The position numbers and the translations under genes were made by a program. Of a DNA stretch of 64,000 nucleotides, positions 9,849-34,660 are shown in pieces. This DNA is from a virus (lineage: Duplodnaviria > Heunggongvirae > Uroviricota > Caudoviricetes), in IMG/VR virus record IMGVR_UViG_2645727946_000002; one strand, 5' to 3'. The stretch's first letter is position 1. Each line of letters starts with the position of its first letter. The notes under the pieces are model-generated. The model did not search any database. It saw only the letters and a list, made by a program, of their open reading frames with translations, and was not told where the DNA came from.

Positions 9849-9856
9849 GAGTTCAG

Positions 9857-11925: not shown

Positions 11926-11951
11926 CGCACGAACCAATTTCGATATGAGGA

Positions 11952-11974
11952 CCCGCCACACGGCGGGTTTTTTT
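11952..11974 (+). terminator. terminator-like hairpin (acccgcc-acac-ggcgggt + T7) between gpL and gpK homologues
   Basis: Read directly. 7-bp GC-rich stem, 4-nt loop, seven T, immediately before ATG 11975. Confidence 0.4.
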
Positions 11975-12727: not shown

Positions 12728-13308
12728 GCGAGACGCTTCGCACGATAAGGCTGTACGGCACGCTCGGCGTGCGTTTCGGACGCATTCACCGCCTTGCCGT
12801 CTCGTCGACCGCGGAGGCGGTGCGGGCGTTGTCAGTGCTGATTCCCGGCTTCCGGGCGTTCCTGACTTCGTCGCGCGACGCCGGCCTGACGTTCGCCGTG
12901 TTCAACGGCACGCGCAATCTCGACGAGGACGAGCTTGAGCACCCGGTCGGGCGCGACGAGATCCGCATCGCGCCGGTGATCGTCGGCAGCAAGCGCGGCG
13001 GGCTCTTCAATACGATTCTCGGCGCCGCACTCGCCGCGGTTGGCGCGGTAGCGACGTTCGGTTTCGCGCAGCCGTGGGGCACGTCGCTGATGGGGCTCGG
13101 GGCGTCGATGGCGCTGGGCGGCATCGTGCAGATGCTCAGCCCGCAGCAGGCCGGCCTCGCGGGCGCGGCCAACAACGGCACGTCGTACTACTTCAACGGA
13201 CCCGTGAACAGCGCCGCACAGGGTGAGCCGGTGCCGCTCGTTATTGGGGAAATGATCGTCGGCTCGAAGGTGGTCAGTTCTGGGATTTATGCGGAGGATC
13301 AGGTTTGA
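12724..13308 (+). CDS. tail assembly protein I (lambda gpI-like)
   Basis: GTG 12724 overlaps the gpK stop. 194 aa with a Gly/Ala-rich hydrophobic C-terminal half. Canonical K-I-J order. Confidence 0.7.
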   Translation: MSETLRTIRLYGTLGVRFGRIHRLAVSSTAEAVRALSVLIPGFRAFLTSSRDAGLTFAVFNGTRNLDEDELEHPVGRDEIRIAPVIVGSKRGGLFNTILGAALAAVGAVATFGFAQPWGTSLMGLGASMALGGIVQMLSPQQAGLAGAANNGTSYYFNGPVNSAAQGEPVPLVIGEMIVGSKVVSSGIYAEDQV

Positions 13309-16300
13309 AAAGGCTTCATGCTGAAGGGGGGCTGAAGCGGATCTACGGCGCGAAGGGCGGCGGCGGCGGCGGCGGCAGCAGCGAATCGCCTGACAGCCTG
13401 CATTCGATTGCGCGCGCGAAGGTGCTCGACGTGATCTCGGCGGGGCCCATCGTGGGGCTGGTGAATGGCCTGCAGTCGGTCTATCTCGACGGCACGCCGA
13501 TCCAGAACGCGGACGGCTCGCTGAATTTCCAGAACTACACCGTCGACGCGCGAACCGGCACGCAGGATCAGGACTACATCTCGGGTTTTCCGGCCGTCGA
13601 GCGTGAGGCCGGCGTCGGCGTGCCGCTGACGTCCGACGCGCCGTGGGTGCGCCAAATCCAGAATACGCAACTGACTGCGGTGCGCGTGCGCTTCGGTGTG
13701 CCGGCGCTACAGCGTCAGGACACGTCGAACGGCAATATCACGGGCTATCGCGTCGACTATGCGATCGACTTGTCGGTCGACGGCGGGTCGTATGCGCAGG
13801 TGCTGGCCGGTGCGTTCGACGGCAAGACAACGTCGCTCTATGAGCGCTCGCATCGGATCGAGCTGCCGCGCGCAAAAAATGGTTGGTTGATCCGCGTGCG
13901 CCGCATCACGCCGAACGCGCACACGGCGACGATCGCCGACGCGATCAACATCGAGGCGATTACCGAGATCATCGATCGGAAGCTCCGCTATCCGATGACG
14001 GCGCTTGTCGGTATGACGTTCGACGCACGTTCGTTCTCGAGCGTGCCAGTGCGTTCGTATCACGTGCGAGGGATGATCTTCCGAGTCCCGACAAACTACG
14101 ACCCGGAGACGCGTACGTACTCGGGCACATGGGACGGTACGTTCAAGGCAGCATGGACGAACAATCCGGCGTGGGTCTACTACGGCCTACTTCTCGACAA
14201 GCTCAACGGATTGGGCGACCGTGTCGATGCTTCGATGGTCGATAAGTGGGCGCTGTACGCAATCGCGCGTTACTGCGACGAACTCGTGTCCGACGGGAAG
14301 GGCGGAAAGGAGCCGCGCTTCACCTGCAACTGCGTGCTTCAGACGCGCGCGGACGCATTTAAGGTGGTACAGGATCTCGCGAGCGTCTTTCGCGGCATTT
14401 CGTACTGGGGCGCCGGGTCGGTGGTCGCGTCGGCCGATATGCCATCCGATCCGGTCTACCTGTACACGGCCGCGAATGTCGTCGGTGGTTCATTTAAGTA
14501 CGTCGGCAGCGAACGCAAGACGCGTTACACAGTTGCGCTCGTCAGCTACAACGATCCGACGAACCAGTACAAGCAAGCTGTCGAGCCCGTGCAGGACGAC
14601 GACGGGATTGCGCGATATGGCGTCATCAAGACGGAGGTCACGGCGTTCGGCTGCACGTCGCAGGCGCAGGCACACCGGCTCGGGCGCTGGCTGCTGCTGA
14701 CGTCGCGGTACGAGACCGGGACGGTGTCGTTTCAGGTCGGGCTCGATGGGACGCTTTGTGCGCCGGGACAGGTGATCGCCGTTGCCGACCCAAAGAAGGC
14801 CGGCCGCCGGATCGGCGGGCGCATCCGCGCAGCGGCTGGCGAAAGGATCACGCTCGACAAGGCGCCGACAATCGCCGCCGGCGATCGCTTCACGGCGATT
14901 CTGCCGTCGGGTATTGCCCAGGCGCGCGCGGTCAAGTCGGTCGACGGCGACACGGTCACGCTCGCCGAGCGCTTCGACGCCGATCCGGTGGCGGGCGCTG
15001 TGTGGATGATCGAAAGCCGCGAGCTCGCGGCGCAGCAGTATCGCGTGGTGAGCGTGCAGGAAAGCGACGACGACGGCCAGATCGTCTACACGATCAACGC
15101 GACGCAGTACGAGCCGGGGAAGTACGCGGCGATCGACGACGGCGCACAGATTCAGCAACGGCCGATCACGATCGTTCCGCCATCGGTGCAGCCGCCGCCG
15201 TCGAACGTCCGCCTCTCGACATACTCGGTGGTCGATCAGGGCATTTCGAAAACAACGATGGTGATCGCGTGGGATGCAGCGAGCCACGCGACAAGCTACG
15301 TCGTCGAATGGCGGAAGGATAACGGCGAGTGGGTGAAGGTGCCGTCGACAGGCGGCCTGCAGGTCGAGGTGCCGGGAATCTATCAGGGCAAGTACCTCGC
15401 GCGGGTGCGCGCCGAGAACGCGCTCGGCGTGACGTCGATTCCGGCGTACGGCGTCGATACGCAACTGACCGGGAAAACCACTCCGCCGCCGTCGGTCGTG
15501 TCGCTGACTGCGGCGGGCATCGTGTACGGGATCGATCTGAAATGGGCGTTTCCGGGTGACGGATCCGCTGGCGACACGCAGCGAACGGAGATCTGGTACA
15601 GCCGCACGCCGAATCGCGACGACGCGACCAAGTTCTCCGACTTCGCGTATCCGCAGGCGTCGACGTCGTATCAGGGGCTCGCGGTCGGGCAGGTGTTTTA
15701 TTTTTGGGCGCGCCTGGTCGACACGTCCGGCAACGTCGGACCGTGGTTTCCGGCGAAGGGGCCGGGCGTGCAGGGGCAGCCGAGCACGGATCAAAGCGAC
15801 TACGAGAAGTATTTCGCCGGCCAGATCGGGAAGTCGGCGCTTGGCACGGAGCTGCGCGCGCCGATCGACCTGATCACCCCGCCGATGGCCGGCGACGCAA
15901 CGATCTACGCGGGCGACGAAAGGCTCAATGCTGGCGTGTGGTCGCTGCAGGCGGCGATCGCCGAGGGCGATATGGCGGTCGCGAAGAAAGTCGAAACAGT
16001 CGCGGCCCAGCTGCACTCGGGCTCGAATCTGCTGAACGCCGCGGTGCAGAAGGAGACGATTGCGCGTGTCGAAGCTGATCGTGCGATGGCGCAGGACATC
16101 ACGACTGTACAGGCGAAGGTGAACGACAACGCGGCCGCGGTACAAACCGTGGCGCAGTCCTACGCCGATTTGAACGGACGCGTCGCGGCGTCGTATCAGA
16201 TCAAGGTGCAGACGACCGTCGACGGGCGCAAGTACATGGCATCGATCGGCGTGGGCATGGACAACGACAACGGCATCGTCGAATCGCAGGTGCTTGTGTC

Positions 16301-16610
16301 TGCGAAGCGATTCGCCGTGATCGACGAGGACGGTGCGGGCGTGATCGGCGCGCCGTTCGTTGTGCAAGGCGGGCAAGTGTTTTTGCGGCAGGCGCTGATC
16401 GGTGCAGGCTGGATCACGAACGCGATGATCGGCAACTATATCCAGTCCGACAACTACATCGCGGGGCGGCAGGGATGGCGGTTGGATAAGACCGGTTGGT
16501 TCGAAATCAACGCAGCGGACGGCAGCGGAAATCGGCTTGTGATGGATGGTAGCAGTGTCCGTGTCTACGACGGTAACGGCGTGCTGCGGGTGCGCATGGG
16601 GATGTGGTGA
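13305..16610 (+). CDS. host specificity / central tail fibre protein J
   Basis: 1101 aa at the lambda gpJ position. Start TTG 13305 overlaps the gpI stop. Gly-rich N-terminus. Confidence 0.9.
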   Translation: MKRLHAEGGLKRIYGAKGGGGGGGSSESPDSLHSIARAKVLDVISAGPIVGLVNGLQSVYLDGTPIQNADGSLNFQNYTVDARTGTQDQDYISGFPAVEREAGVGVPLTSDAPWVRQIQNTQLTAVRVRFGVPALQRQDTSNGNITGYRVDYAIDLSVDGGSYAQVLAGAFDGKTTSLYERSHRIELPRAKNGWLIRVRRITPNAHTATIADAINIEAITEIIDRKLRYPMTALVGMTFDARSFSSVPVRSYHVRGMIFRVPTNYDPETRTYSGTWDGTFKAAWTNNPAWVYYGLLLDKLNGLGDRVDASMVDKWALYAIARYCDELVSDGKGGKEPRFTCNCVLQTRADAFKVVQDLASVFRGISYWGAGSVVASADMPSDPVYLYTAANVVGGSFKYVGSERKTRYTVALVSYNDPTNQYKQAVEPVQDDDGIARYGVIKTEVTAFGCTSQAQAHRLGRWLLLTSRYETGTVSFQVGLDGTLCAPGQVIAVADPKKAGRRIGGRIRAAAGERITLDKAPTIAAGDRFTAILPSGIAQARAVKSVDGDTVTLAERFDADPVAGAVWMIESRELAAQQYRVVSVQESDDDGQIVYTINATQYEPGKYAAIDDGAQIQQRPITIVPPSVQPPPSNVRLSTYSVVDQGISKTTMVIAWDAASHATSYVVEWRKDNGEWVKVPSTGGLQVEVPGIYQGKYLARVRAENALGVTSIPAYGVDTQLTGKTTPPPSVVSLTAAGIVYGIDLKWAFPGDGSAGDTQRTEIWYSRTPNRDDATKFSDFAYPQASTSYQGLAVGQVFYFWARLVDTSGNVGPWFPAKGPGVQGQPSTDQSDYEKYFAGQIGKSALGTELRAPIDLITPPMAGDATIYAGDERLNAGVWSLQAAIAEGDMAVAKKVETVAAQLHSGSNLLNAAVQKETIARVEADRAMAQDITTVQAKVNDNAAAVQTVAQSYADLNGRVAASYQIKVQTTVDGRKYMASIGVGMDNDNGIVESQVLVSAKRFAVIDEDGAGVIGAPFVVQGGQVFLRQALIGAGWITNAMIGNYIQSDNYIAGRQGWRLDKTGWFEINAADGSGNRLVMDGSSVRVYDGNGVLRVRMGMW

Positions 16611-16918
16611 TGACGAGCGGACTTCAGATTTTCGACGGTGCAGGTCGTCCGATCCTCGACGCCAAGTCGCGAGCGGGACGGGTGGTTGGGATTGCTTGGG
16701 CTGGCGGGAGCGATGGGAGTGTCGCGGCGGATATGTCCGGTGGGGAGCCGTTTTGGGCCTTCATGCCGCAACAGATTTTCTTTCGTGTATCGGGCGCCGA
16801 GCCGTCGCCGGTCGTCTCGATTAATGCAGGGGGAATCAGTTGGTCGTATAGCCCGAACTCGAGCGGATCGAACGCGTACACCCGAGTCCCCGGGTGGATC
16901 GTTTTTGGAGTGTATTGA
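16610..16918 (+). CDS. hypothetical protein (post-J tail-associated)
   Basis: ATG 16610 overlaps the J stop (TGATG). 102 aa. Confidence 0.45.
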   Translation: MTSGLQIFDGAGRPILDAKSRAGRVVGIAWAGGSDGSVAADMSGGEPFWAFMPQQIFFRVSGAEPSPVVSINAGGISWSYSPNSSGSNAYTRVPGWIVFGVY

Positions 16919-17634
16919 TGCCGGCAGGATTTCAGGCATTCACTGATACCGGTGTGTATCAGATCGACGGGCGAACGCCGAACTACCAGATGGTCCAATC
17001 GATGGCGGCGGATTCTGCGGTCGGTTCGTTGCCTTTGGCACGGAATGATGCTGGGCGGACGTTCATGATAGATCTTCCGAGTGTCACTTTCACTTTCTCG
17101 TCAGTGGCGGGTCCGATGTACGCGGTACTCGCATCTGGCGCAGTGGGAATCACGCTGTGGGGTGCGAAGCGAAATGGAAGTTCGTATTCCGTGACGTTTG
17201 TCACCGAGCGACCATGTAACGTCCGACTGTTCGTGTTCGACCAAGTACCCGTCGCCGCAGGAAGCTTCGGGTTGCAGGTTTTCGATGCTGGCGGACGATT
17301 GGTCGCGGATTCGTCGAAGCCGTTTCTCCGGGTCCTCGATGTGATCTTCGAGGATTACATGAACGGTGTTGGGTGGACAGTCGAGGGCGCACCTTCGCCG
17401 CCGTGGCATTCTCGGTCGTACGGCGTGCCAGTTCTGATTTCCGCCATCTACTCCGTTCATCGAGCGTGGAGCTATGACCCGGGGGTGGTTGAGCTCTCGT
17501 CGATTCGCGTTGACGGTGGGAATGTGTCTTGGGGAACGGCGCTGTACAACGGTGGGAGAACGCCGAATATCGCATGCTTTCGCGAGCAGTATCACTCGCG
17601 ATTCATGGTGCTTGACGGGACGGGAATCGTTTAG
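16918..17634 (+). CDS. hypothetical protein (post-J tail-associated)
   Basis: ATG 16918 overlaps the previous stop. 238 aa. No recognisable motif. Confidence 0.5.
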   Translation: MPAGFQAFTDTGVYQIDGRTPNYQMVQSMAADSAVGSLPLARNDAGRTFMIDLPSVTFTFSSVAGPMYAVLASGAVGITLWGAKRNGSSYSVTFVTERPCNVRLFVFDQVPVAAGSFGLQVFDAGGRLVADSSKPFLRVLDVIFEDYMNGVGWTVEGAPSPPWHSRSYGVPVLISAIYSVHRAWSYDPGVVELSSIRVDGGNVSWGTALYNGGRTPNIACFREQYHSRFMVLDGTGIV

Positions 17635-17647
17635 CGGGTCGCCAAAT

Positions 17648-17890
17648 ATGGCGGCCCTTTTTCATTGCGAGGGGCTGATGCGAGCGAGTCCGAGTGAGGT
17701 GGCGAGTTATGTTGGAAGTGTTACAGCTGTTGCGTCTTCACTGACGCTGACGGATATCGGCGTGATCGTCGGGATCATGACGGCAATCGCGACGTTTGGG
17801 CTCAACTTCTTTTTTATGTGGCGCAAGGATCGCCGGGAACAGCGCGAATCGGACATGCGCATTCTGGAGATGGAGAGGCACGATGGCTGA
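17648..17890 (+). CDS. holin (putative, dual start M1/M11)
   Basis: 80 aa. Hydrophobic segment LTDIGVIVGIMTAIATFGLNFFFMW followed by a charged tail. Second in-frame ATG at codon 11. Overlaps the endolysin start. Confidence 0.6.
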   Translation: MAALFHCEGLMRASPSEVASYVGSVTAVASSLTLTDIGVIVGIMTAIATFGLNFFFMWRKDRREQRESDMRILEMERHDG

Positions 17891-18425
17891 AATGCGGAGG
17901 ACGACTCTTGTGGGTGTTGTGGGGGCTGCTGCGGCAGCCCTTCTTTTTTCCGTCGTCCCGAAGTTCGAGGGCGTCAAACTGGTCGGGTATCTCGATCCGG
18001 TCGGCATCCCGACAAAGTGCATGGGCGACACGCGCGATGTCGTCGTCGGCCGGGCGTACAGCGAGGCCGAGTGTCGCTCGTCACTCGAAACGCAACTGAT
18101 CGCCCACGCCGAACCCGTGCTGCGTTGCACGCCGGGGCTGAAAGATCGTCCGTATCAGCTCGCGGCGGCTGTGAGCTTTGCATACAACGTCGGCGCGCAT
18201 GCCTACTGCAACAGCACGACGGCGAAGCGCTTCAACGCGGGCGACCTGCGCGGCGCGTGCCGCGCGATCAACGAATCCGATAGCGGTCGGCCGCAGTGGG
18301 TCTTTGCGAACTGCCGGACCGTTATCGACCCGAAAACGAAAAAGCCTCTGCCGGTATGCGACACGCTACCGGGTCTGGTGAAGCGGCGTGCGGAAGAGCG
18401 CGCGATCTGCGAGCGGGGGCTCTGA
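17883..18425 (+). CDS. SAR endolysin (T4/P21-type lysozyme, GH24)
   Basis: N-terminal Gly/Ala-rich SAR segment TTLVGVVGAAAAALLFSVV, then the E-x8-D-x5-T catalytic triad (FEGVKLVGYLDPVGIPT). Confidence 0.85.
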   Translation: MAEMRRTTLVGVVGAAAAALLFSVVPKFEGVKLVGYLDPVGIPTKCMGDTRDVVVGRAYSEAECRSSLETQLIAHAEPVLRCTPGLKDRPYQLAAAVSFAYNVGAHAYCNSTTAKRFNAGDLRGACRAINESDSGRPQWVFANCRTVIDPKTKKPLPVCDTLPGLVKRRAEERAICERGL

Positions 18426-18967
18426 TGCCGAAAGCAGCTCCGTATCTGTTGGCCGCCTTGCTTGGCATGGCGGCAGGCGCGGGCGCCGAGTACCTGATCG
18501 GCGCGCGTCGGCTCGCCGACGAGCAGGCCGCGCGTGCGCTCGATGCGCAACGGCACGCCGAAGCGTTGGGCGCGATCTCGCGTGCCGCGCTCGACGCCGA
18601 GCGACGCGCGATCGCCGCGAATGACGCAGCCGCGTCGGCGGTGGCCGCCGTCGACCAACGAACCACGAAGGAGAGGAACGAGCATGAAGCTGAGAATCAC
18701 AGCCTGCGGGCTGCTCTTGCCGCTGGCACTGAGCGGTTGCGCGTCGCCGTCCGACGCTGCACGGCAGCCGGTCGCGACGGCATGCCCGGCGCTTCCAGCG
18801 CCGCCGGCGTGGGCGATGGTGCCGCCGCCTATGCAGACGTCGACGCAGCGGTTGCGGAACGCGTTTTCGGCGTCGTCGGCGACGATCAGCGCGAGATCGA
18901 CAAACTGACGGCCCTCCAGGGTTACGTCTGCGCGATCCGGCCGCAGTCGCCTGGATGTCAGAAATGA
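18425..18967 (+). CDS. Rz: Rz-like inner-membrane spanin
   Basis: ATG overlaps the endolysin stop. N-terminal TM (LLAALLGMAAGAGAEYLIGA), Ala/Arg-rich coiled coil. Confidence 0.7.
   Translation: MPKAAPYLLAALLGMAAGAGAEYLIGARRLADEQAARALDAQRHAEALGAISRAALDAERRAIAANDAAASAVAAVDQRTTKERNEHEAENHSLRAALAAGTERLRVAVRRCTAAGRDGMPGASSAAGVGDGAAAYADVDAAVAERVFGVVGDDQREIDKLTALQGYVCAIRPQSPGCQK
18684..18908 (+). CDS. Rz1: Rz1-like outer-membrane lipoprotein spanin embedded in +1 frame of Rz
   Basis: MKLRITACGLLLPLALSGC lipoprotein signal with lipobox. Pro-rich 74 aa. Entirely inside Rz, with SD GGAGAGGAAC upstream. Confidence 0.7.
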   Translation: MKLRITACGLLLPLALSGCASPSDAARQPVATACPALPAPPAWAMVPPPMQTSTQRLRNAFSASSATISARSTN

Positions 18968-19010
18968 AAATCGAATGTAAACTCGGCGGCTCATGAAGTG
19001 AACAACATCT

Positions 19011-19928
19011 ATGGACCTGAGATCGAATATGAAAAGAACCTTCGCCTACATGGCGCTTCCGCTTTGCCTCTACGTTTCCGCATGTGGCGGTGGGGATGAT
19101 GGTGGTGGGGGATCGTCTGGCCCGGCGATTAAGCTCACCTATTCGGGCGCGCCGCTGGTGTCGGAGCAACGAGCGCGGGCGATGGCCGCGGGTGCCAACG
19201 TTTCGAGCAACCTATCGAGCCAGAGCAGCTCGGCGGATGGCGCGGCCACCATTGCCGCACTTCAAGATGCCTTCAAGGCCCGCGGCGCGGATGTCGGGGT
19301 GTATCCCGGCATTGTCAATGGAACGACGTTGCACCAACTCGTCATGTCCGAGAACAACGGAATCGGCCCGGCAATCGACGAAGTTTATAACTCGAAAACG
19401 AACATCAGCGAATGGGTGCTCGTCAATTTCCAGTTCGACGACATGACGGGCTATATCGATTCGAACGAGAAGTCGGAGATGGTGGATCGCTTCAAAAACG
19501 AACTGCTGATCTACGTGGAACGAGAGTATATGAAAGGGCGGGTGGTATTCGCCGCCCTCCCGATCATGTCGTGCGCTCCCGATAAGGTAGTCAGTTCGGT
19601 CGACGCAGCCGGACGCGCTGTTTTGACGACGTATCCGACCGCGTCTAAAGCGCTTTATCGAGCCATTGAAGTGGCTGCGAATAACAACGTCTTTCCGGTT
19701 GATACAGTTGGCGGTACGTCTCAGCCGGATGTCGCGCACATGGGCGCCGATTGCAGTACGCCGGATAAGGTCGCGCAAGACGCTCAGATCGCGAGCATCG
19801 TCGATCCGCTGGTTGAGCGCTACAAGGTAGCGCTCGATACGATCAACAAGTGCAAGTACAACCGCGAGGCCATCCCGGAAGAAGGGCGGTCCGCGCAATG
19901 CTGGGGTATCGAGCCTGTTAAGAAATAA
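19011..19928 (+). CDS. lipoprotein of unknown function (prophage cargo)
   Basis: Signal peptide with lipobox (…LPLCLYVSACGGGDDGGGGS). Real start may be ATG 19029. Weak terminator-like hairpin at 19937..19961. Confidence 0.55.
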   Translation: MDLRSNMKRTFAYMALPLCLYVSACGGGDDGGGGSSGPAIKLTYSGAPLVSEQRARAMAAGANVSSNLSSQSSSADGAATIAALQDAFKARGADVGVYPGIVNGTTLHQLVMSENNGIGPAIDEVYNSKTNISEWVLVNFQFDDMTGYIDSNEKSEMVDRFKNELLIYVEREYMKGRVVFAALPIMSCAPDKVVSSVDAAGRAVLTTYPTASKALYRAIEVAANNNVFPVDTVGGTSQPDVAHMGADCSTPDKVAQDAQIASIVDPLVERYKVALDTINKCKYNREAIPEEGRSAQCWGIEPVKK

Positions 19929-20027
19929 TGCTTGTTGCCCCGGTCGCCCGGCCGGGGCTTTGCCTCCAAAATCGGGTGCATTGCTTTTATCCAACTCCGG
20001 TGTTCGCGGAATTACGGATTTGGATTC

Positions 20028-20043
20028 CTGTCATGTCTGACAG
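20028..20043. promoter_or_regulatory. LexA-box-like palindrome CTGT-N8-ACAG (cCTGTCATGTCTGACAGg) upstream of PAAR gene
   Basis: Read directly. Perfect 7-bp inverted repeat CCTGTCA/TGACAGG containing the CTGT-N8-ACAG core, 64 nt upstream of ATG 20107. Confidence 0.4.
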
Positions 20044-20106
20044 GGTGGTTCCGGCAATTTCCCCCGTGCTACATTCCATCGAAAATTTCCTTGTGGAGAG
20101 TTCGAC

Positions 20107-20667
20107 ATGGGGTTTGCGTTTATTTGCGAGGGGGACACGACCACGCATGGGGGGCGTGTGGTCGGCTGTAACGTCGCTAACACGGTTCATGGAAGGGCAA
20201 TCGCATTGCTTGGCGACATGGTGACGTGTCCGCGGTGTGGTGGGATTTACCCGATCGTCAGCGTAAAGCGCGAGTTGAACATGACGTTTGGTGACAGGCC
20301 GATTGCTACAGACGGAGACAAGACCGCGTGTGGGGCAACGCTTATCGCGTCGCAAGGCTTCGCCACGGTTGCCCCTACATCAGGGGCCGCTGGCGGCAAT
20401 TCGATCGGCGGTGGGAAGAGCGTCGTCCCGCAGTCGATGTCACGAGGGCCGGACAATCTATACCGTGGGCGCTTCCAGGTATTTGACGAGACGACTGGAA
20501 AACCGATCGCGAACCATCCCTACGTTCTGCAAACAGCGGACGGCCGGACAATATCCGGCCAGACCGACGCCGACGGCTATACGCAGTGGCACGAGGCAAA
20601 CACGGCTGGATCGTTGCAATTTTCAGCCGAGTCGACTCAGGGGCCGGGCGAAGGCGGTGTTTTATGA
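20107..20667 (+). CDS. PAAR-domain protein with C-terminal transthyretin-like (TTR) extension (T6SS spike tip / effector adaptor)
   Basis: N-terminus GDTTTHGGRVVG…GDMVTCPRCGG…GDKTACGATLIAS has the PAAR-like repeated GD-x3-C pattern. C-terminus YRGRFQVFDETTGKPIANHPYVLQTADGRTISGQTDADGYTQW is TTR/carboxypeptidase-regulatory-like. Confidence 0.65.
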   Translation: MGFAFICEGDTTTHGGRVVGCNVANTVHGRAIALLGDMVTCPRCGGIYPIVSVKRELNMTFGDRPIATDGDKTACGATLIASQGFATVAPTSGAAGGNSIGGGKSVVPQSMSRGPDNLYRGRFQVFDETTGKPIANHPYVLQTADGRTISGQTDADGYTQWHEANTAGSLQFSAESTQGPGEGGVL

Positions 20668-21398
20668 GTGGTCGTGCCTACGGAGCCAACTCCGGTCAAG
20701 GTGGCATGTCGCCGAAGGGCGAAACGACGCCCGTGCGTCTTCGGCCCGCTACGCCCGACCCGGTCGATAAAAAGGTCATCTGCAAGGCCGTTTGTGTATG
20801 CAGTCGAGAGCCAGACACTGGTGCATCGGGCCAAAGCCTCAAGCAGCAGTGCGTTTCGCGCAACCTGCGCGACGTGGATCGGTCGATGGGGTGGAAGAGC
20901 CCGTACAAGTCGGAAGTCAACTACGACATGACGCAGATCCCTCCGTCGCCGATCATGCGCTCCGCGTCTCCCTTGGAGCCGCACCCTTACTTGCCAGGCT
21001 GGATTCAAAAATACTGGCCTGGCGGGAAAGATGCGTATCCCGCTGGCGCCGGTGCTGTTCGGCGCCCCGACGTGGTGATTGTCAAGGACGGATCTCTGTC
21101 GCCAACTCAGGACAACATCAAGAGCGTGGTGGAGATTAAATTCCCGCCTCAAGAAAGGGATCGCGAGCAAGAGGACGACTACGCACGCATTGCCGGTTCG
21201 CCCGAAAAGGTTGCGACTATGAGCCCCGGCGACTGTGACTGTTCCGACGATGACGCCAATGAAAGTCCGCTCCGAGCGGTTTCTGAGGCGCTCTCCGAAC
21301 TCGGGCGTTCCCTGCGTCAACTACTTAACCGCAGTCCTGCTTCCCCGCCTGGCATGGGTGGTTTGCCGTTGCCACCGCCTCCCATAGTCGTTCCATAA
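20664..21398 (+). CDS. putative cargo effector, possible PD-(D/E)xK nuclease fold, Pro-rich C-terminal tail
   Basis: ATG overlaps the PAAR stop (ATGA). Candidate PD-(D/E)xK motif RRPDVVIVKDGSLSPTQDNIKSVVEIKFP, by inference. C-terminus ends PLPPPPIVVP. Confidence 0.45.
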   Translation: MSGRAYGANSGQGGMSPKGETTPVRLRPATPDPVDKKVICKAVCVCSREPDTGASGQSLKQQCVSRNLRDVDRSMGWKSPYKSEVNYDMTQIPPSPIMRSASPLEPHPYLPGWIQKYWPGGKDAYPAGAGAVRRPDVVIVKDGSLSPTQDNIKSVVEIKFPPQERDREQEDDYARIAGSPEKVATMSPGDCDCSDDDANESPLRAVSEALSELGRSLRQLLNRSPASPPGMGGLPLPPPPIVVP

Positions 21399-21425
21399 TT
21401 GAGCCTTCCTAGCATCGACGCGAAT

Positions 21426-22517
21426 ATGGATCAGAATTTTCTCGAATGGGCAAAGGCCAATCAGGGCAAAGCGCTGGTGCCCAATGGTCTTTTGGAACCT
21501 CGCTACGCAACCGGTGGAATCGGAGCGGCCGTCGTCGTGCGCGCGTCGCTCTATTTTGAGCGTGCATTCGATCCCGCCGTCCGCGCGGCGGTTGCCGACT
21601 GTTTCGACGACTACTGTGCTGTACCCGAATGCAAATTGACGTTCCTATGGAGTAACGGGAAGGCGGCGCAGCCGTTCGCGCGAGCCAAGCCTCTGCGTGC
21701 AGCGGCCAGTAAGCTCGGTCCTGAGGACCGTTTCGACTTCTGCTACGTTGGCGGGGAGCAAGCCTCGGACGCAAGTTTTTGGAGATTCGAAGTCGTGGGT
21801 CAGCGTCAGTGGCAAGAGAAGATGGGCAATCGCGGTCTCAACTCCCTAGCGTTCTCATGGCCGGTTGTGGCTGTCCAAGAGAACCCCGATGCCTTCGCAA
21901 AACTGTTCTTTGATGCTGCGCGCCGCTTAGATGCCGTTCAAGGTCAGGCGGGCTTCGCCGTCAACCTTTCCCCGACCGCTCCTCACGAGAATGAGGCGAC
22001 GGAATACTGGATCGCGCAAATTATGCCGGGGCTCGATGTCGGCGACCCCGGATCGACTTCAGCCCGCGATCTGAAGGGCAAAATTAAATCCGTCAATTGG
22101 CTGACAGCCATCGGCAAGCCCATGTTGGACACCGTCGGCGGTGTTCGCGCGCTGACGTCGGAACTCCCTCCGAATTGGTTTGCCATTGGTGATTACGGTG
22201 CCGGCGTTATCGTCCGTGCGGGCGTATTGCCTGAGTCGGGTCTCTCCGAGCGCGAGGAGGAACCCCCGTTCTTGCCACCGACCTACGTCGTCCTCGATAA
22301 GGCACTGCGGCGCGTGCGAGCGGAAAGCATGGACATTCTTCAGCGCGGCACGGTCAACGCCGGCGCGCCGGTCTACAACACGCGCGAATCAACGGCAGCG
22401 TGGCTGCGCCGCTTCGAGGTGGGCGACGACGAATTGCTCAGTGCGAAGGCTGCGATTCTCAAAACGCCGCGTTTGCCCAAAGGCTCGATTCCGAGCAGTA
22501 GTGGCGATCCAGTCTGA
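21426..22517 (+). CDS. putative cognate immunity protein (unknown family)
   Basis: 364 aa cytoplasmic-looking protein immediately downstream of the putative effector. Alternative TTG start at 21399 directly after the effector stop. Confidence 0.4.
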   Translation: MDQNFLEWAKANQGKALVPNGLLEPRYATGGIGAAVVVRASLYFERAFDPAVRAAVADCFDDYCAVPECKLTFLWSNGKAAQPFARAKPLRAAASKLGPEDRFDFCYVGGEQASDASFWRFEVVGQRQWQEKMGNRGLNSLAFSWPVVAVQENPDAFAKLFFDAARRLDAVQGQAGFAVNLSPTAPHENEATEYWIAQIMPGLDVGDPGSTSARDLKGKIKSVNWLTAIGKPMLDTVGGVRALTSELPPNWFAIGDYGAGVIVRAGVLPESGLSEREEEPPFLPPTYVVLDKALRRVRAESMDILQRGTVNAGAPVYNTRESTAAWLRRFEVGDDELLSAKAAILKTPRLPKGSIPSSSGDPV

Positions 22518-22649
22518 TGCATCGGCAGTTCGCCGCGCCGCTCCCGTTTTGGGCGGGCAGTAGGTGGCCGGCGAGAGTGGCGTTCGCCACAGTCGAGCAG
22601 GTATTCGCATCTCATCGGGAAAGTTCTGGTCGTTCATCTTTTGTCCCTG

Positions 22650-23291
22650 CTACGTGATGCGATAGAACGCCTCTTCGCCGCGCTCGACTTCAAGGATGCG
22701 CTTTAACTGGTCGAGCGCGAATAGCTCCATCCCACGTTTCTCTGCCTCAGCTCGAGCTGCGTCGACGAGCTTTTGCGATTTTCCAACAATGTTGTTTCGC
22801 AAATATGCGATCTCGAGAGCCATGCGTTGCTCGAGCGTATGCCGGCCGACCTTCTTGCCTTCCTCGAGACGCCATTTTTCGCGCAGTTCAGCCCATGTTA
22901 CCCGCTGAAATTGCGGGACTGATTTCGGCGATGCGCCGGGCGGCGCGTCGTCTGGCGACTCCCAGCGCTTAGACTTGAGCTCTTCGCGGGCACGCCACTC
23001 GTCCGAAAAGGGCGCGACCGGTTCTCGCATACGGGCGAACGGCGCGGCACGATCGATTTCCTTCTCGACAATGTAGCCGAGCCTCCGTAGCGGCGCGCCA
23101 TACTCGAGCAACGACGGGTCAATTGCGCGCGCCCGCCGCGACGCATCTGCGATGCAACTGCGGAGCTCCCACAACGTGAGGCGTTGGTGTTGAACTTCGA
23201 GAATCAGCCGTTGGACGTCTGCATACGTGCAGCGCGTCCACCACTCGGTCATCTCGGGTAGTTTGGGAGGGTTGAACGGTGGCAGGATCAT
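22650..23291 (-). CDS. hypothetical protein, divergent from SRAP gene, LexA box in shared upstream region
   Basis: 213 aa. Start 23291 lies 19 nt from the CTGT-N8-ACAG box. Confidence 0.45.
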   Translation of the reverse strand: MILPPFNPPKLPEMTEWWTRCTYADVQRLILEVQHQRLTLWELRSCIADASRRARAIDPSLLEYGAPLRRLGYIVEKEIDRAAPFARMREPVAPFSDEWRAREELKSKRWESPDDAPPGASPKSVPQFQRVTWAELREKWRLEEGKKVGRHTLEQRMALEIAYLRNNIVGKSQKLVDAARAEAEKRGMELFALDQLKRILEVERGEEAFYRIT

Positions 23292-23309
23292 TTCGTAATA
23301 CGAGAAAAC

Positions 23310-23325
23310 CTGTAATTTTATACAG
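23310..23325. promoter_or_regulatory. LexA (SOS) box CTGTAATTTTATACAG
   Basis: Read directly. Matches the E. coli / beta-proteobacterial consensus CTGT-N8-ACAG with an AT-rich spacer (aCCTGTAATTTTATACAGTA). About 50 nt upstream of the SRAP start. Confidence 0.6.
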
Positions 23326-23376
23326 TATATCTTGGACTATGATGAAGTGATCCATCCCCTGAAAAGAGGTGCCGTC

Positions 23377-24045
23377 GTGTGCACCAACTATCGCGCCCCT
23401 GACGAAGATCCGGGTATCAGCGAGCTCCGGCTTGGTCTGATCGACCTATGGAAGAGAACGCCTTGGGAGTTGGAGATTTACCCGGACTATCTCGCGCCTA
23501 CGGTGGCGATGATCGACGGGCGCGTCGAGGCGTTCCTCGCGGGGTTCGGCTACTGGCCGCGCGCCTTGCAGAAAGCAAACATCGAGAGAGCGAAGGTCGA
23601 GGGCAAAGGGCCGCCGATCATGCGTAGCACGATGAACGTGCGCGACGACAATCTCGGGCGATCGCCGCTTTACGGGCCGGCATGGCGCGCGGGGCGCCGC
23701 TGTTTGATTCCGGCGCAGTGGATTTACGAGCCGTGCTATGAAACCGGCCGAAACGTCTGGCACCGAATCGGCCTGACCGGCTGGCGGCCGTATTGTGTTG
23801 CGGGGATTTGGCGGACTTTGAAAGGCCTGGACGGGAACGATCTGCACACAATGGCGATGATCACCGTCAACGCCGAGCGCGATCCCATCATGTCGCGCAT
23901 GCATAAGCCCGGCGACGAAAAGCGATCGGTCGTCATACTCCGACCTGACGATTGGGAAGAATGGCTCTCGACCGGAAATGTCGACGCCGCGCGCGCTATG
24001 TTGCAGCTTTACTCGGCCGACGAACTCGTTGCGGCCCCAAAATAG
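23377..24045 (+). CDS. SOS response-associated peptidase (SRAP / YedK family, abasic-site processing)
   Basis: GTG start gives the obligatory Met-Cys N-terminus (M-CTNYRAPDE…), with SD AAGAGG 8 nt upstream. C-terminal …VVILRPDDWEEWL typical of SRAP. Confidence 0.8.
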   Translation: MCTNYRAPDEDPGISELRLGLIDLWKRTPWELEIYPDYLAPTVAMIDGRVEAFLAGFGYWPRALQKANIERAKVEGKGPPIMRSTMNVRDDNLGRSPLYGPAWRAGRRCLIPAQWIYEPCYETGRNVWHRIGLTGWRPYCVAGIWRTLKGLDGNDLHTMAMITVNAERDPIMSRMHKPGDEKRSVVILRPDDWEEWLSTGNVDAARAMLQLYSADELVAAPK

Positions 24046-24802
24046 CTTTGTTAGTTACACGAAAGCTCGCTGACTGCGGGCTCTTTTGTACAGCCCGGAG
24101 CGGGAGGCTCGCTGGACGAGGCGATTCGTTGTCGTACACATCTGAATTGTTGGGGAGTCGCCGGGCCCCCAGATTCCCGGCGCTGTCTCATTGGGGCCAG
24201 GAAGCGACGTTCGCTGGATAGTGACTATGGCAGAACCTAGATGCGTTTCGGTCATTCGAAGCCATTTGACGTTGATTAAACGACCGAAGTCTTCGATGTC
24301 TGTTCGCCTTCGCACCCTTGCATTCATGGAGAGATTTTCAGCTTCATGCATTAGTGTTTTTGGTCGCTATGATGTCTCCGATTTGTTTTTCGAGGTCTGT
24401 GCCCAAATAGTCCACGCCATCCGCTCCGCATATCCCTCTAGAAGATCTCGATCAGCAAGCCACTCAAGAACATCGAAATTAATCGCCTCGGCCATCTTCG
24501 CGAGCAACTGCGCGAGCGTTGCATTTTTGTGCGCTTCAAGCAGCCACATAAACGTCTTGAACGGTGTCTCGATCGTTTGCTCTGCGGAGGGCTCAATACG
24601 TTCAAAGAACGTTGCAGGATGCCGTCTGTAGGCTTACAACTCTGCAGCCGAGAGAGGTGCGCTCACAATCACTTGCTGCCCGTCCTGCAACTGAAAAGCG
24701 CTCCGAAAATTCCCCGAAATCCGGAGCGCTCGACACAAAATATGCGTAAAATTTCAGCCAGCAACACCCGAAACTTGACTCATTGGATTTGATGCTAGAA
24801 GC

Positions 24803-25372
24803 CTAAATATCCAAATTAAGAGGTCCAATGTGAAATTTGTCGATCGCAATAGGCTTCACGTCGGCTTCAAATTCAATATGAGCGCCATTTTTGAAATTGA
24901 TAGATGCGCGGTACCAGATGTCAATCAAGGGTGATAGGTATTTATTATTTGTTGATAACTCGCCTTTTTTAAAGTGAAGAGCAAGGCCGCCTACGCCGTA
25001 ACCAAAGATGTTGGCGGATATATCGAGCACGTATTCGCCATCACTCGGATTTGTTACTTCGATGTGTACATTTATAGCCGGGGGCACGGTAAAATCTTTT
25101 TTTAATATGGATGTGGAGTCGTTAGATTCCACCAATGCGATCGTCCCGTTTGCTCCAGTCGCATTAGATACAACGCCCGATACCGTGGCAGCAACAGAAG
25201 GTTTCCACTCGGTTCCAAAATATTCGTGCAGGAGTGCATCCGCGATCACGTCCTTTGAATCGTCATTTCGCGAGAAATTAGGATCTATTTTGGAATATAC
25301 GTCTAAAATTTTTTTGGAAAAAAATAGTGCCAGTTCTTTTTGCTGTTCAGTCACTGCGATCCGATTCGACAT
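24803..25372 (-). CDS. hypothetical protein (AT-rich, horizontally acquired cargo)
   Basis: Low-GC ORF in a high-GC genome. GGAG 6 nt upstream of ATG 25372 (MSNRIAVTEQQ…). No recognisable domain. Confidence 0.5.
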   Translation of the reverse strand: MSNRIAVTEQQKELALFFSKKILDVYSKIDPNFSRNDDSKDVIADALLHEYFGTEWKPSVAATVSGVVSNATGANGTIALVESNDSTSILKKDFTVPPAINVHIEVTNPSDGEYVLDISANIFGYGVGGLALHFKKGELSTNNKYLSPLIDIWYRASINFKNGAHIEFEADVKPIAIDKFHIGPLNLDI

Positions 25373-25647
25373 CGCCATCTCCGTATCGATTGATGATGGT
25401 TTAAGTGAAAACCGCCGTGTGGCAATCGGATGGTGATGTGTTGATTGTTTGGTGTCAAGGGGTGAGTCAATATTTAACATTCATTCTGGTGCGAGTGATG
25501 GTTTCTGATAGAAGGAAGTGCCTTTGATTTTATTCTTGATTTGGTTTTTGAAATTTTATCGGTTATCGTTGATATGAAGAAGGCATTGTGAACTGGGCCC
25601 CGAACGGACGCTCCGGAGTTGCGTCAAGGACCGCTGCGGAGCGCAAT

Positions 25648-26241
25648 TCAATGAATCTGGAATACGTTTTGCCGATGTCGACTCCCATAGGGATGGGATT
25701 CAGAGCTGCCTTCGTTCAGAAATACCGCACGCGTATGATGCGCCCAGTGCGCAGCCGCGTTCAGACACCTCGTCTTGGTCTCACTATGATCGAACTGCCA
25801 CGGCTGAATCACTTGATCGGGCTTTCGGATGTGGCGGCTAATCACGCTTAGGCGAACTGTACCGCCGCGATCCGTCATCCAGAACTGACACTCAATCACA
25901 CCGTAGTACGAATTCACGCTCCAAATCAAAATCGTTGAAAATCGCGAAACAGTGTGCTCGGCGTGCCCTTCAAACCCGCGCAAATCGTGGAGTGCTTGCA
26001 GCATGAAGCCCGGTAGCGTGTCGTCCCTTTGGTCATCCGGAACCCCAACATCAAAAAACACGATTCGGGGATGAGCGGCCTGTTTCCGCAGGGCACCTTG
26101 GAGGCGTCTTCCGAGCCGAAACCTGGGTCTACCTGTTGCATCTGCGTCCGCCAATTTCCGCACTAATGATGGGTCGGCCCAGCCCTTGTTGAGCGACGCG
26201 TTGAGCCTCCTTGCCCATAGCTTTCGCGCTTGCCTCGGCAA
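25648..26241 (-). CDS. hypothetical protein (N-terminal extent uncertain)
   Basis: 197-aa ORF. Its first about 38 codons overlap the SEC-C ORF in another frame, so the true start may be internal. Confidence 0.3.
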   Translation of the reverse strand: MPRQARKLWARRLNASLNKGWADPSLVRKLADADATGRPRFRLGRRLQGALRKQAAHPRIVFFDVGVPDDQRDDTLPGFMLQALHDLRGFEGHAEHTVSRFSTILIWSVNSYYGVIECQFWMTDRGGTVRLSVISRHIRKPDQVIQPWQFDHSETKTRCLNAAAHWAHHTRAVFLNEGSSESHPYGSRHRQNVFQIH

Positions 26242-26416
26242 TAGCCTTTTCTAGCTCAGGAGGCAAAGCTTGGTGTGCTGGTTCGAGCGCAGTCCGTCCG
26301 TGGCAATACTTATATTTTCTCCCGCTCCTGCATTGACAACGTTCGTTGCGTCCGTTTTTCGTAGCGGTAAGCACGCCCCAAGCCGACTCACTCCGAATAT
26401 ATTCGCACATCTCCAC
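26129..26416 (-). CDS. SEC-C metal-binding motif protein (small)
   Basis: CQCRSGRKYKYCHG matches the SEC-C Cx-C-x-S/G-G-x-K-Y-K-x-C-C/H-G signature. Confidence 0.3.
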   Translation of the reverse strand: MEMCEYIRSESAWGVLTATKNGRNERCQCRSGRKYKYCHGRTALEPAHQALPPELEKAIAEASAKAMGKEAQRVAQQGLGRPIISAEIGGRRCNR

Positions 26417-26967
26417 CCCATTCGAGCAAGTCGGTCTTCACGGACGTACTGGGCGCCATCGATGATGAACTTGATCAGTCGACAACCTATTTTCCTACCG
26501 AGAGATCCCACTATCGGGCAGCGTACTAAGAGCATGCAGTGCTGCGTGCTAACGTGTCATATTGGTTAGTCAGCGGACCGGCGCCCGTGATGATTGAGTG
26601 ACTCGAACGGGGCGACGCCGGCCGTCCCTGAAAAGGCGCCCCAAGTCGGAGAGCGGCGTTTTTAGCAATGGCGTCGTAACGCCGGCAAGATTTGGGGAGA
26701 AATTTGGGGACGAATGAGGGTAGTGGAGGGGCATGTCCGGATCTCCATTTCCATAAAAAAACAGAGCTTTACGCCTCGCCAGCCCCTTGCAAAACCCTCG
26801 TTTTGGGTTCGAAACCCATCGAAGGTTCGTTCGTTGCTGCGGGCTACTGTTCTTTGAACTAGGGCGGAAGAGGGTATTCGAGCGGCGAAGACTGAGATCG
26901 GGATGACGAGCAATGACAGGAATTAGGATTGCACTGCCCGCGAACCCTTAATTTTCAGACGATCCTC

Positions 26968-26995
26968 GGGGGTTCGAATCCCCCTCTCTCCGCCA
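26968..26995 (+). other. tRNA-Ser 3' end fragment (T-arm + acceptor + CCA), putative attR of prophage / attL of next island
   Basis: …GGGGGTTCGAATCCCCCTCTCTCCGCCA is identical in form to the 3' end of tRNA-Ser. No matching 5' half (GGAGAGA…) is found upstream, so this is a fragment. Confidence 0.7.
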
Positions 26996-26996
26996 G
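26978..26996 (+). repeat. 19-bp direct repeat ATCCCCCTCTCTCCGCCAG (copy 1)
   Basis: Exact copy at 34661..34679. Confidence 0.85.
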
Positions 26997-34458: not shown

Positions 34459-34660
34459 GCCAGAGGGGCGGATTTCCGCCCCTCTTTGCTAGATAGGTGA
34501 CGGTTGGACGCGCAAGGCTGGAAAAGAAATACGCAGGCAGGGCGAATACCGGTAGAGTGACGAGTGTCACGTCACGGGGTCCCGGATTTCATGGGACACC
34601 TGAAACGCAAGCCAAGAAAATTCCATTGCGAATCAATGGCTTGGATCACTGGCCGGGAGT

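Follow-up and report, generated by a model that had tools for sequence, protein, structure and literature searches.

A predicted PAAR2-type T6SS cargo-effector cassette on a phi644-2-like prophage of the Burkholderia pseudomallei group

Results

Gene content and phage context

We analyzed a 64,000-nucleotide stretch of viral DNA (Caudoviricetes; IMG/VR record IMGVR_UViG_2645727946_000002), referred to here as the window. Three genes at 20107–20667, 20664–21398, and 21426–22517, with the coordinates given in the initial annotation, encode a PAAR-TTR protein, a nuclease, and an immunity protein. The features of the locus are as follows:

17796–18425: lysozyme gene of the lysis cassette, upstream of the trio
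18296–18967: Rz gene of the lysis cassette, upstream of the trio
19937–19958, plus strand: GC-rich hairpin, right after the stop of the upstream gene 19011–19928
20027–20044, no strand assigned: imperfect dyad (arms CCTGTCA and TGACAGG, centre TGTC), putative upstream operator of the cassette promoter
20066–20076, plus strand: extended −10-like block GTGCTACATTC (TGnTAnATT), with a putative transcription start near 20082
20095–20100, plus strand: ribosome-binding site GGAGAG, read from the sequence, 6 nt 5′ of the PAAR ATG
20107–20667, plus strand: PAAR-TTR protein, 186 aa, equal to phi644-2 gp28
20664–21398, plus strand: predicted TseV-like VRR-NUC / PD-(D/E)xK nuclease effector, 244 aa, equal to phi644-2 gp29
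21426–22517, plus strand: predicted TsiV (DUF3396) immunity protein, 363 aa, equal to phi644-2 gp30
23308–23327: textbook LexA box before the SRAP gene, in the same cargo region (25.6 bits on the LexA matrix)

The window matches the virion-derived phage phi644-2 (NC_009235.2) with 97.6% identity over positions 8104–23975, which contain the trio, and with 99.9% identity just downstream, over 24158–26996, bearing out the proposal that the three genes are prophage cargo. The prophage is of the siphovirus type, with a lambda-like tail encoded by M/L/K/I/J tail genes and no contractile spike. It is rearranged relative to phi644-2, in that a 7.66-kb element interrupts attP and the region for early functions and replication is absent, and this copy looks defective. 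The attP core consists of the 30-bp 3′ end of tRNA-Ser(GGA) (26966–26995) and lies 6.9 kb from the start of the region, so the distance of about 7 kb given for the att site is correct. The trio had also been placed just downstream of the lysis cassette; it does follow these genes, but one unrelated gene (19011–19928) lies between. The segment immediately after that gene (19929–19970) folds at −20.8 kcal/mol (z = −2.1) into a 9-bp stem followed by CUUUG. This hairpin is kept in the siphovirus relatives, has a sub-threshold Rfam match to the terminator end of isrL, and is probably a weak terminator that parts the upstream gene from the cassette. No T6SS apparatus gene or vgrG was found within the window.

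The PAAR-TTR protein

The 186-aa protein consists of a PAAR cone (res. 8–81), a Gly-rich linker, and a TTR-like β-sandwich (res. ~117–172), the two-domain arrangement recognized in the initial annotation. Its N-terminal domain scores 75.6 bits against PAAR family PF05488 (cut-off 27; E = 3.6e-21), covering the whole 70-position model, and matches the conical β-fold of solved PAAR proteins, the best structural matches including the phage PAAR tips of T4, P1, and phiKZ. The His and Cys residues at the tip (H14, C41, C44, and C75) show no variation among 30 homologues and are predicted to bind metal. One P2-like phage record (PK23) annotates the PAAR gene as a 'baseplate protein'.

The C-terminal extension matches the transthyretin/prealbumin-like β-sandwich fold, and its family profile aligns with a C-terminal construct of VgrG2b (6h56, residues 8–57; E = 6.5e-6) and with EAEC VgrG1 (6sjl, residues 781–826; E = 9.7e-4). 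By profile and by fold, the extension is homologous to the C-terminal TTR domains of EAEC VgrG1-Tle1 (PDB 6SJL) and P. aeruginosa VgrG2b (PDB 6H56). VgrG TTR domains recruit cargo effectors (PMC7376260). In VgrG1-Tle1 and VgrG2b the domain is attached to VgrG and the cargo of such systems is a lipase, whereas here the domain is attached to PAAR and the presumed cargo is a nuclease.

The nuclease and its immunity protein

The second gene overlaps the PAAR stop codon via ATGA, and its 244-aa product carries the PDVVIVKD…VVEIK motif and the proline-rich tail that had been described. The protein itself scores 19.8 bits against VRR_NUC (PF08774), below the Pfam cut-off of 23.8. The family is matched at E ≤ 0.01 by 30 of the 31 aligned nuclease homologues (best E = 2.7e-9), and most of the nuclease homologues listed carry a precomputed PF08774 assignment. 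Residues E84, P135-D136, E157, and K159 are invariant across 31 nuclease sequences at 43–79% identity, and the core of the structural model (res. 130–190) has a pLDDT of 87–94. Foldseek placed FAN1 VRR-NUC domains and other PD-(D/E)xK nucleases at the top of its matches to this model, with non-significant E-values of 0.4–3 over ~55 columns. Comparison with PDB sequences, using either the single sequence or a profile, gave no match for the nuclease, and an NCBIfam search returned nothing useful. The phi1026b orthologue is named a VRR-NUC protein in RefSeq, and the gene adjoins a DUF3396 immunity gene. The PD-(D/E)xK signature initially proposed thus holds at the family level as VRR-NUC with an invariant D…ExK, and we assign the 244-aa product from its sequence as a VRR-NUC/PD-(D/E)xK protein with intact predicted catalytic residues.

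The third open reading frame lies where it had been placed, but its length of 364 aa counted the stop codon; the product has 363 residues. The phi644-2 annotation begins this gene further upstream, at an alternative TTG (21399). The protein scores 214 bits against the TsiV family (PF11876/DUF3396; cut-off 25, Pfam E = 3e-63) and aligns over ~310 residues with PA0821 (PDB 7DRG; E = 1.9e-57), in agreement with its earlier designation as an immunity gene. Both this protein and the PAAR protein are 100% identical to their phi644-2 counterparts. TsiV homologues occur in 43 phage records, and PHROGs labels all three proteins of the trio 'unknown function'.

A fixed three-gene unit in phages and chromosomes

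We examined 60 loci, comprising the window, four phages, and 55 loci from genome assemblies (Burkholderia, Paraburkholderia, Trinickia, and Massilia) whose flanks were unscreened for phage genes. The order PAAR-TTR, VRR-NUC, TsiV homologue is found in 59 of them, and phages and chromosomes alike carry the three genes as one fixed unit. Essentially the same DNA forms gp28–gp30 of phi644-2, and orthologous trios are gp28–30 of phi1026b and gp29–31 of phiE125; in all three phages the trio follows the lysis cassette and precedes the SRAP gene and attP, as in the window. It is also present in phiBtTUL1a and phiBt-TXDOH, and in the P2-like myovirus phiE12-2 it occupies a non-structural region, with replication genes on one side and a TA module on the other. 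In RefSeq, the phi1026b products are already labelled PAAR, VRR-NUC, and DUF3396. Together with the ATGA overlap in the window, the synteny supports a putative recruitment of the downstream effector by the TTR extension.

The closest known system is the P. aeruginosa PAAR2 cluster, in which separate PAAR (PA0824, PAAR2), VRR-NUC (PA0822, TseV), and DUF3396 (PA0821, TsiV) genes are ordered as here. The likeness to PA0821 is that of the alignment above; PAAR2 and TseV are likened without direct sequence comparison, and the GenBank notes of phi1026b record similarity to PA0821–PA0823. The Pseudomonas cluster, as cited in PMC13366799, is chromosomal and H2-T6SS-linked (Wang et al. 2021 FEBS J; PDB 7DRG), whereas the present cassette is phage-borne. 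In Salmonella bongori, TseV1–4 and TsiV1–4 likewise pair a VRR-Nuc PD-(D/E)xK toxin with an adjacent DUF3396 gene, and there a T6SS delivers the toxin. TseV effectors are structure-specific nucleases that cause double-strand breaks and are neutralized by DUF3396 proteins, although two of the four from S. bongori show no toxicity (Hespanhol et al. 2022, PMC9635880). In TseV1–3 the nuclease has a PAAR-like domain fused at its N-terminus, which TseV4 lacks. In the present cassette, by contrast, PAAR is encoded by a gene of its own and bears a TTR-like adaptor, with the nuclease as a predicted cargo effector. A PAAR2/TseV/TsiV cluster has also been reported on the Burkholderia gladioli phages AB4 and Mana and read as a T6SS-effector moron (PMC13366799, 2026). 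These are P2-like myoviruses with a divergent effector–immunity pair (the Mana TsiV homologue has 36% identity), and function is predicted there too. Taken as a whole, the region is very likely a self-contained T6SS cargo-effector cassette of the PAAR2-cluster kind, a moron on a lambdoid siphovirus prophage that resembles phi644-2 and comes from the Burkholderia pseudomallei group.

Alternatively, the nuclease and the DUF3396 protein could act inside the cell as a toxin–antitoxin, addiction, or anti-phage defence module to which PAAR is incidental. The module was termed a 'restriction modification moron' by Ronning et al., and the pair does sit among other phage morons near R-M genes. TsiV has a PADLOC match, to the candidate defence family PDC-M20B (E = 3.8e-15), but no PADLOC model matches the nuclease. 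Effector–immunity pairs resemble type II TA systems, as discussed in PMC9635880, yet that study demonstrated TseV/TsiV homologues as T6SS substrates. Against an incidental PAAR stand its linkage to the pair in all but one of the loci, the translational overlap in the window, and the homology of its TTR domain to the effector-loading domains of VgrG. We consider a purely intracellular function improbable, while noting that T6SS and intracellular roles can coexist. That PAAR is instead a structural tail-tip protein, as are T4 gp5.4 and P1 UpfC, is hardly credible: despite the phage tips among its structural matches and the label in PK23, the phage that carries it has a lambda-like siphovirus tail and therefore leaves PAAR without a virion role, the PAAR gene follows the lysis genes here and is placed among non-structural genes in phiE12-2, and it always travels with the nuclease and immunity genes, including in the 55 loci from bacterial assemblies.

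The upstream dyad and the cassette promoter

The dyad upstream of the PAAR gene had been described as a perfect palindrome. Its CTGT-N8-ACAG core is present at 20028–20043, but the 7-bp arms enclose a non-symmetric centre, and the dyad begins at 20027, one base to the left of the start first given. A dyad is found at the matching position in phage and chromosomal homologues; the pattern CTG-N10-CAG occurs at −73 to −83 in 29 of the 60 loci, window included, and the stricter CTGT-N8-ACAG is kept in only 13. The −10-like block is present with up to three mismatches in 55 of the 60, located 37–45 nt 5′ of the ATG and always 29 nt downstream of the point where the right arm of the dyad starts. The combined signature occurs 23 times in IMG/VR, each time 31 nt ahead of a PAAR gene, and no wider regulon is apparent, as these and all matches in the fetched loci precede PAAR genes. 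The cassette therefore has a conserved upstream signature of its own, and the dyad and the extended −10-like block are parts of a conserved putative promoter that belongs to the cassette itself. A consensus promoter scan found nothing. A sigma-70 −35/−10 pair using the TTGACA-like arm of the dyad was rejected, with a 27-nt spacer to TACATT and no hexamer at the 17-nt position, as was a sigma-54 −24/−12 promoter, with no GG-N10-GC in register.

The dyad is most likely a site for an activator or other regulator, the strongest candidate being a quorum-sensing protein of the LuxR type. It resembles the CepR cep box and LuxR lux box (Chambers et al. 2006, PMC1766932), which share the CTG-N10-CAG pattern found here ~75 nt before the ORF. 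On a cep-box matrix built from 10 CepR sites (training range 14.0–24.8 bits), 12 orthologous loci score 14.4–18.3 bits with dyads such as CTGTCAACGTTGACAGTT, inside the training range, and the dyad is the top match of its locus in 22 of 60. The window dyad itself reaches 9.7 bits, which is the 99.99th percentile of background but below the training minimum. Its centre would lie at about −46.5, some 4 bp upstream of the classic −42.5. The cassette is not listed in an eLife 2016 quorum-sensing paper, an EMBO Rep 2026 paper on T6SS regulation gives no motif, and a 'PAAR' match in a CepIR preprint was actually PaaR. We tentatively suggest, as a possibility well short of a favoured conclusion, that the dyad and extended −10 form a cassette-specific promoter under LuxR-type (BpsR/BtaR/CepR) control, the signature moving together with PAAR2-type cassettes among chromosomes and two or more unrelated phage lineages.

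Could the dyad function as RNA, forming a 5′ leader hairpin (an attenuator or stability element) rather than a protein-binding site in DNA? It folds at −11.6 kcal/mol (z = −2.05), and compensatory arm changes are seen in phiE12-2 and in one further locus (L007). However, all 7 pairs are intact in only 4 of the 54 distinct sequences, most of which retain 4–5, and the right arm is more strongly conserved than the left. The dyad is also probably not transcribed, because it lies upstream of the conserved −10-like block, and no known RNA family in Rfam matches the leader. A hairpin role is thus very unlikely.

The initial annotation took the dyad for a LexA box that would make the cassette SOS-inducible by DNA damage, alongside prophage induction, and proposed a motif scan. 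The CTGT-N8-ACAG pattern is enriched in the window (4 observed against 0.42 expected), and the dyad is conserved among the siphovirus relatives. In the scan, however, on a matrix of 20 E. coli sites, the dyad scores 3.2 bits and ranks 26th in the window, against 14.1–31.7 bits for the training sites and 25.6 bits for the textbook box at 23308. Its spacer is not AT-rich, whereas canonical LexA boxes elsewhere in the same phages have AT-rich spacers. Beyond the poor retention of the core noted above, phiE12-2 carries CTGA…TCAG in its place, and the dyad's centre, ~46 bp upstream of the putative start, is off the −10/−35 region usual for a repressor. Moreover, in an uninduced lysogen few prophage genes are expressed as highly as the phi1026b orthologues, which have RNA-seq values of 186,000 (PAAR), 132,500 (VRR-NUC), and 77,624 (DUF3396) RPKM against 1,000–5,000 for structural genes (PMC2920897). 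On matrix score, poor conservation, and published expression we reject a LexA operator, which we hold to be slightly less probable still than the RNA hairpin. Of the DNA-damage-inducible T6SS effector module first envisaged on this prophage, the nuclease, the immunity gene, and the prophage cargo stand, and the induction by DNA damage falls.

Discussion

The preferred reading, a T6SS cargo-effector cassette, suggests the following mechanism. In the lysogen, transcription of the cassette would be driven by a dedicated extended −10 promoter. A VgrG trimer of a host antibacterial T6SS would be capped by the PAAR cone, while the TTR-like domain would hold the translationally coupled nuclease. Firing of the T6SS would then deliver the nuclease into neighbouring cells, where DNA would be cut, and TsiV would shield the lysogen and its kin. 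With nuclease delivery on one side and TsiV protection on the other, a lysogen would thus be able to kill non-lysogens and would incur a cost on losing the prophage.

The cassette is already known, being present and annotated in published phage genomes. Since the idea of phage-carried T6SS ammunition has also been published, the finding is confirmatory. Its promoter signature is rigidly conserved, and the regulator could be identified by experiment.

The cassette puts what appears to be ready-to-use T6SS ammunition, together with its antidote, on temperate phages of a Tier-1 pathogen group. Such cargo can shift the winners of contact-dependent fights between strains and can make a prophage hard to lose. 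If the tentative LuxR-type control is correct, lysogens of temperate Burkholderia phages would be armed with a T6SS nuclease and its immunity protein under a density switch and would kill both non-lysogens and quorum-sensing cheats. Phages would in this way extend the 'policing' described for the T6SS-1 effectors of B. thailandensis.

Cassette location and source phages

The window carries a lambda-like siphovirus prophage (prohead protease, HK97-type capsid, tape measure, tail L/K/I/J, lysozyme and Rz). It is 97.6% identical to phage phi644-2 over 8104–23975, a block that wholly includes the cassette and the inverted repeat upstream of it, and 99.9% identical over 24158–26996, directly downstream. 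The phi644-2 genome derives from particles that B. pseudomallei 644 released (PMC2920897). The cassette corresponds to gp28, gp29 and gp30 of this phage and consists of three genes on the same strand:

20107–20667, PAAR-TTR protein, 186 aa
20664–21398, predicted VRR-NUC nuclease, 244 aa, overlapping the PAAR ORF (ATGA)
21426–22517, TsiV immunity protein, 363 aa, started at an in-frame TTG (21399) in the phi644-2 record

The trio occupies the equivalent place in newer isolates as well as in phi1026b, phiE125, phiBtTUL1a and phiBt-TXDOH. In RefSeq, the phi1026b proteins bear the names 'PAAR domain-containing', 'VRR-NUC domain-containing' and 'DUF3396 domain-containing', and the original phi1026b GenBank notes already named P. 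aeruginosa PA0821–PA0823. The PHROGs of the three proteins (phrog_5348, 7616 and 6456) are all labeled 'unknown function'.

Domain identities of the cassette proteins

The 186-aa protein matches the Pfam PAAR_motif at residues 8–81 (75.6 bits; cut-off 27), and H14, C41, C44 and C75 are invariant in the family alignment. A Gly-rich linker is followed by a small β-sandwich (res. ~117–172), whose fold is assigned with moderate confidence. The family profile reaches TTR-containing parts of two VgrG proteins, VgrG2b of P. aeruginosa (6h56, E 6.5e-6) and VgrG1 of enteroaggregative E. coli (6sjl, res. 781–826, E 9.7e-4). Since such TTR domains load cargo effectors in VgrG proteins (PMC7376260), these matches and the PAAR match support the PAAR-TTR reading of the initial annotation.

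The 244-aa protein alone scores 19.8 bits against VRR_NUC, under the 23.8 cut-off. Its more than 200 homologues, each ~240 aa, come from Burkholderia, Pseudomonas and their relatives. PF08774 is precomputed for most of them, and 30 of 31 aligned homologues match VRR_NUC (best E 2.7e-9). The predicted VRR-NUC membership rests on the whole family, not on this single sequence. The PD-(D/E)xK signature picked out earlier holds up, with E84, P135-D136, E157 and K159 invariant across the aligned homologues (43–79% pairwise identity). The core of the structure model is confident. Foldseek ranks FAN1 VRR-NUC domains and further PD-(D/E)xK nucleases as the model's closest matches, none of them significant.

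The TsiV protein matches PA0821 of P. aeruginosa, whose structure is solved (7DRG, E 1.9e-57). It also matches the PADLOC candidate defense family PDC-M20B (E 3.8e-15); DUF3396 proteins have therefore already been flagged in defense-island surveys. TseV-family effectors are structure-specific nucleases that give double-strand breaks and are neutralized by DUF3396 proteins (PMC9635880), and the cassette architecture matches the P. aeruginosa 'PAAR2 cluster' (Wang et al. 2021). For both reasons, the initial functional interpretation, a spike protein with a nuclease effector and its immunity gene, is probably right, and it was already known. A PAAR2-type cluster in B. gladioli phages AB4 and Mana was described as a putative T6SS moron in 2026 (PMC13366799).

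A fixed three-gene unit in unrelated phages

Scanning the PAAR-TTR alignment against one genome per species returned 78 loci. The set examined comprised 60 full-length PAAR-TTR loci. Genome assemblies of Burkholderia, Paraburkholderia, Trinickia and Massilia supplied 55, taken irrespective of a prophage or chromosomal setting, and the other five are those of the window and of four phages. In 59 of the 60, the PAAR-TTR gene is followed directly by homologues of VRR-NUC and TsiV. In phiE12-2, a P2-like myovirus, the trio has replication/partition genes on one side and a toxin-antitoxin pair on the other, away from the tail genes. Of the 43 phage records with a TsiV homologue, 41 are from Burkholderia; identity between siphovirus and P2-like lineages is only 35–44%, pointing to distinct effector-immunity specificities.

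A conserved, probable promoter signature upstream of the PAAR gene

A block with the consensus GTGCTAnATTC (window 20066–20076) is found in 55 of the 60 loci at ≤3 mismatches, 37–45 nt upstream of the ATG. Only one of its bases varies freely, position three of a TAnATT hexamer that follows a TG; this is the pattern of a putative extended −10 element. Exactly 29 nt upstream of this block begins TGACAGG(G/A)T(G/A)G, the right arm of an inverted repeat:

20027–20044, CCTGTCA-TGTC-TGACAGG, two 7-bp arms around a center that is not self-complementary

Within ~650 kb of fetched sequence, both blocks are confined to the PAAR-upstream region, the exceptions being a single stray match of each (in loci L003 and L061). 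The combined signature has 23 matches in 2.9 million viral contigs, all 31 nt before a PAAR-TTR gene. Because the signature is restricted to PAAR genes, sequence farther upstream is unrelated between loci and, in siphoviruses, a GC-rich hairpin follows the gene preceding the cassette, we infer that the cassette has its own promoter with a predicted start.

The dyad probably acts as a protein site, a better fit than an RNA hairpin because pairing is imperfect at most loci (of 54 distinct sequences, just 4 keep all 7/7 pairs) and conservation is stronger in the right arm than in the left. The leading candidate for its regulator is a LuxR-type quorum-sensing protein, as judged by a matrix of 10 CepR-regulated cep-box sites (Chambers et al. 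2006, PMC1766932; training range 14.0–24.8 bits). Within its entire 8.5-kb locus, the dyad ranks first in 22 of the 60 cases and among the top five in 38, with scores of up to 18.3 bits (e.g., CTGTCAACGTTGACAGTT). The window dyad scores 9.7 bits, the 99.99th percentile of background yet under the training range, and the inferred dyad center lies at about −46.5 from the predicted start, ~4 bp off the classic position. A LuxR-type regulator would agree with findings in B. thailandensis, where quorum sensing activates toxin and immunity genes of T6SS-1 (PMC4868534); we found no paper tying the cassette to a quorum-sensing regulon.

The initial annotation had instead taken the dyad for a perfect palindrome and a LexA box. 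CTGT-N8-ACAG is indeed present (20028–20043), but the TGTC center makes the repeat imperfect, and it starts one base farther left, at 20027. On a symmetrized LexA matrix of 20 E. coli sites (training sites 14.1–31.7 bits), the dyad scores 3.2 bits and ranks 26 in the window. Its position is fixed across orthologous promoters; CTGT-N8-ACAG is retained in only 13 of 60 and CTG-N10-CAG in 29, and the phiE12-2 dyad (CCTGACAAAACTGTCAGG) keeps its symmetry with a broken LexA core. Nor does the dyad overlap the likely promoter, being placed upstream of it. RNA-seq of an uninduced phi1026b lysogen gives 186,000 (PAAR), 132,500 (VRR-NUC) and 77,624 (DUF3396) RPKM, against 1,000–5,000 for structural genes (PMC2920897), which is not the expression of a LexA-repressed operon. 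We reject the LexA reading on matrix score, core conservation, uninduced expression and position.

A separate moron lies at 19011–19928, distinct from the cassette. Its product, 305 aa long, has a lipoprotein-type signal (…LCLYVSAC-GG) and is homologous to gp27 of phi644-2 and of phi1026b; a Pfam search gave no match, and it is assigned to PHROG 8011, of unknown function. The phi1026b homologue reaches 199,000 RPKM in the lysogen, among the highest of the prophage genes (PMC2920897).

LexA-type boxes and the right end of the prophage

The top LexA-matrix hit of the window, ahead by 16 bits, is a canonical box directly upstream of an SRAP (SOS-response-associated peptidase) gene:

22650–23291, minus strand, gp31 homologue, divergent from the SRAP gene
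23308–23327, LexA-type box ACCTGTAATTTTATACAGTA, 25.6 bits
23332–24045, SRAP gene

This box is conserved in phi1026b, phiBtTUL1a and phiBt-TXDOH, which hold further canonical AT-rich boxes that show the form a LexA box takes in this host. The SRAP gene, not the PAAR operon, is likely the SOS-regulated gene of the cargo region. Other canonical boxes are present in two relatives: phi644-2 carries TGCTGTATAGATGTACAGTA at 37339–37358, within an early regulatory region that the window lacks, and phiBt-TXDOH carries TGCTGTATAAAAATACAGCA at 9969–9988, directly upstream of BtTXDOH_53, the gene after the SRAP homologue.

The att site was correctly placed ~7 kb from the cassette. A 7.66-kb insert, absent from phi644-2 and bounded by an 18-bp partial att repeat, occupies the attP core and looks like an integrative restriction-modification island aimed at the tRNA-like attP of the prophage:

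26966–26995, phage attP core, 30 bp, tRNA-Ser(GGA) 3′ end
27051–28751, integrase-like gene, inside the insert
28919–30553, GHKL-ATPase/REase_II protein with a Ymh/HEPN-like tail, inside the insert
30546–31595, C5 cytosine methylase, inside the insert
32501–33331, IS transposase, inside the insert
34661–34678, partial att repeat

Beyond it, the prophage (34661–40356) appears to be defective or rearranged. Homology to phi644-2 runs out near 38308; phi644-2 34540–48229, its early and replication region, is absent from the window. The phage integrase/transposase gene36 is present as an inverted 347-bp fragment (40010–40356) adjoining a fragment of the terminal HNH gene (39794–40011). Near the right end of this remnant, the ORF at 38839–39363 contains a BrnA antitoxin domain (E 3.6e-22). 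On the minus strand of 47233–63190, very long ORFs of 4131 and 1192 aa in 63–70% GC DNA are presumably host NRPS/PKS-type genes outside the prophage.

Proposed role of the cassette

The cassette has defined domain identities, is a fixed three-gene unit carried by phages isolated as particles, and bears its own conserved promoter signature; its orthologues are strongly expressed in a lysogen (PMC2920897). The window itself contains no T6SS or VgrG genes. The PAAR cone would sit on the VgrG trimer of a host antibacterial T6SS, with the nuclease, translated by coupling, held by the TTR-like domain. T6SS firing would then carry the nuclease into neighboring cells, while TsiV would shield lysogens. 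The phage may benefit because lysogens could kill non-lysogens and loss of the prophage would mean loss of immunity. The cassette was previously known and has been annotated in public records, and its initial reading is correct save for one regulatory inference.
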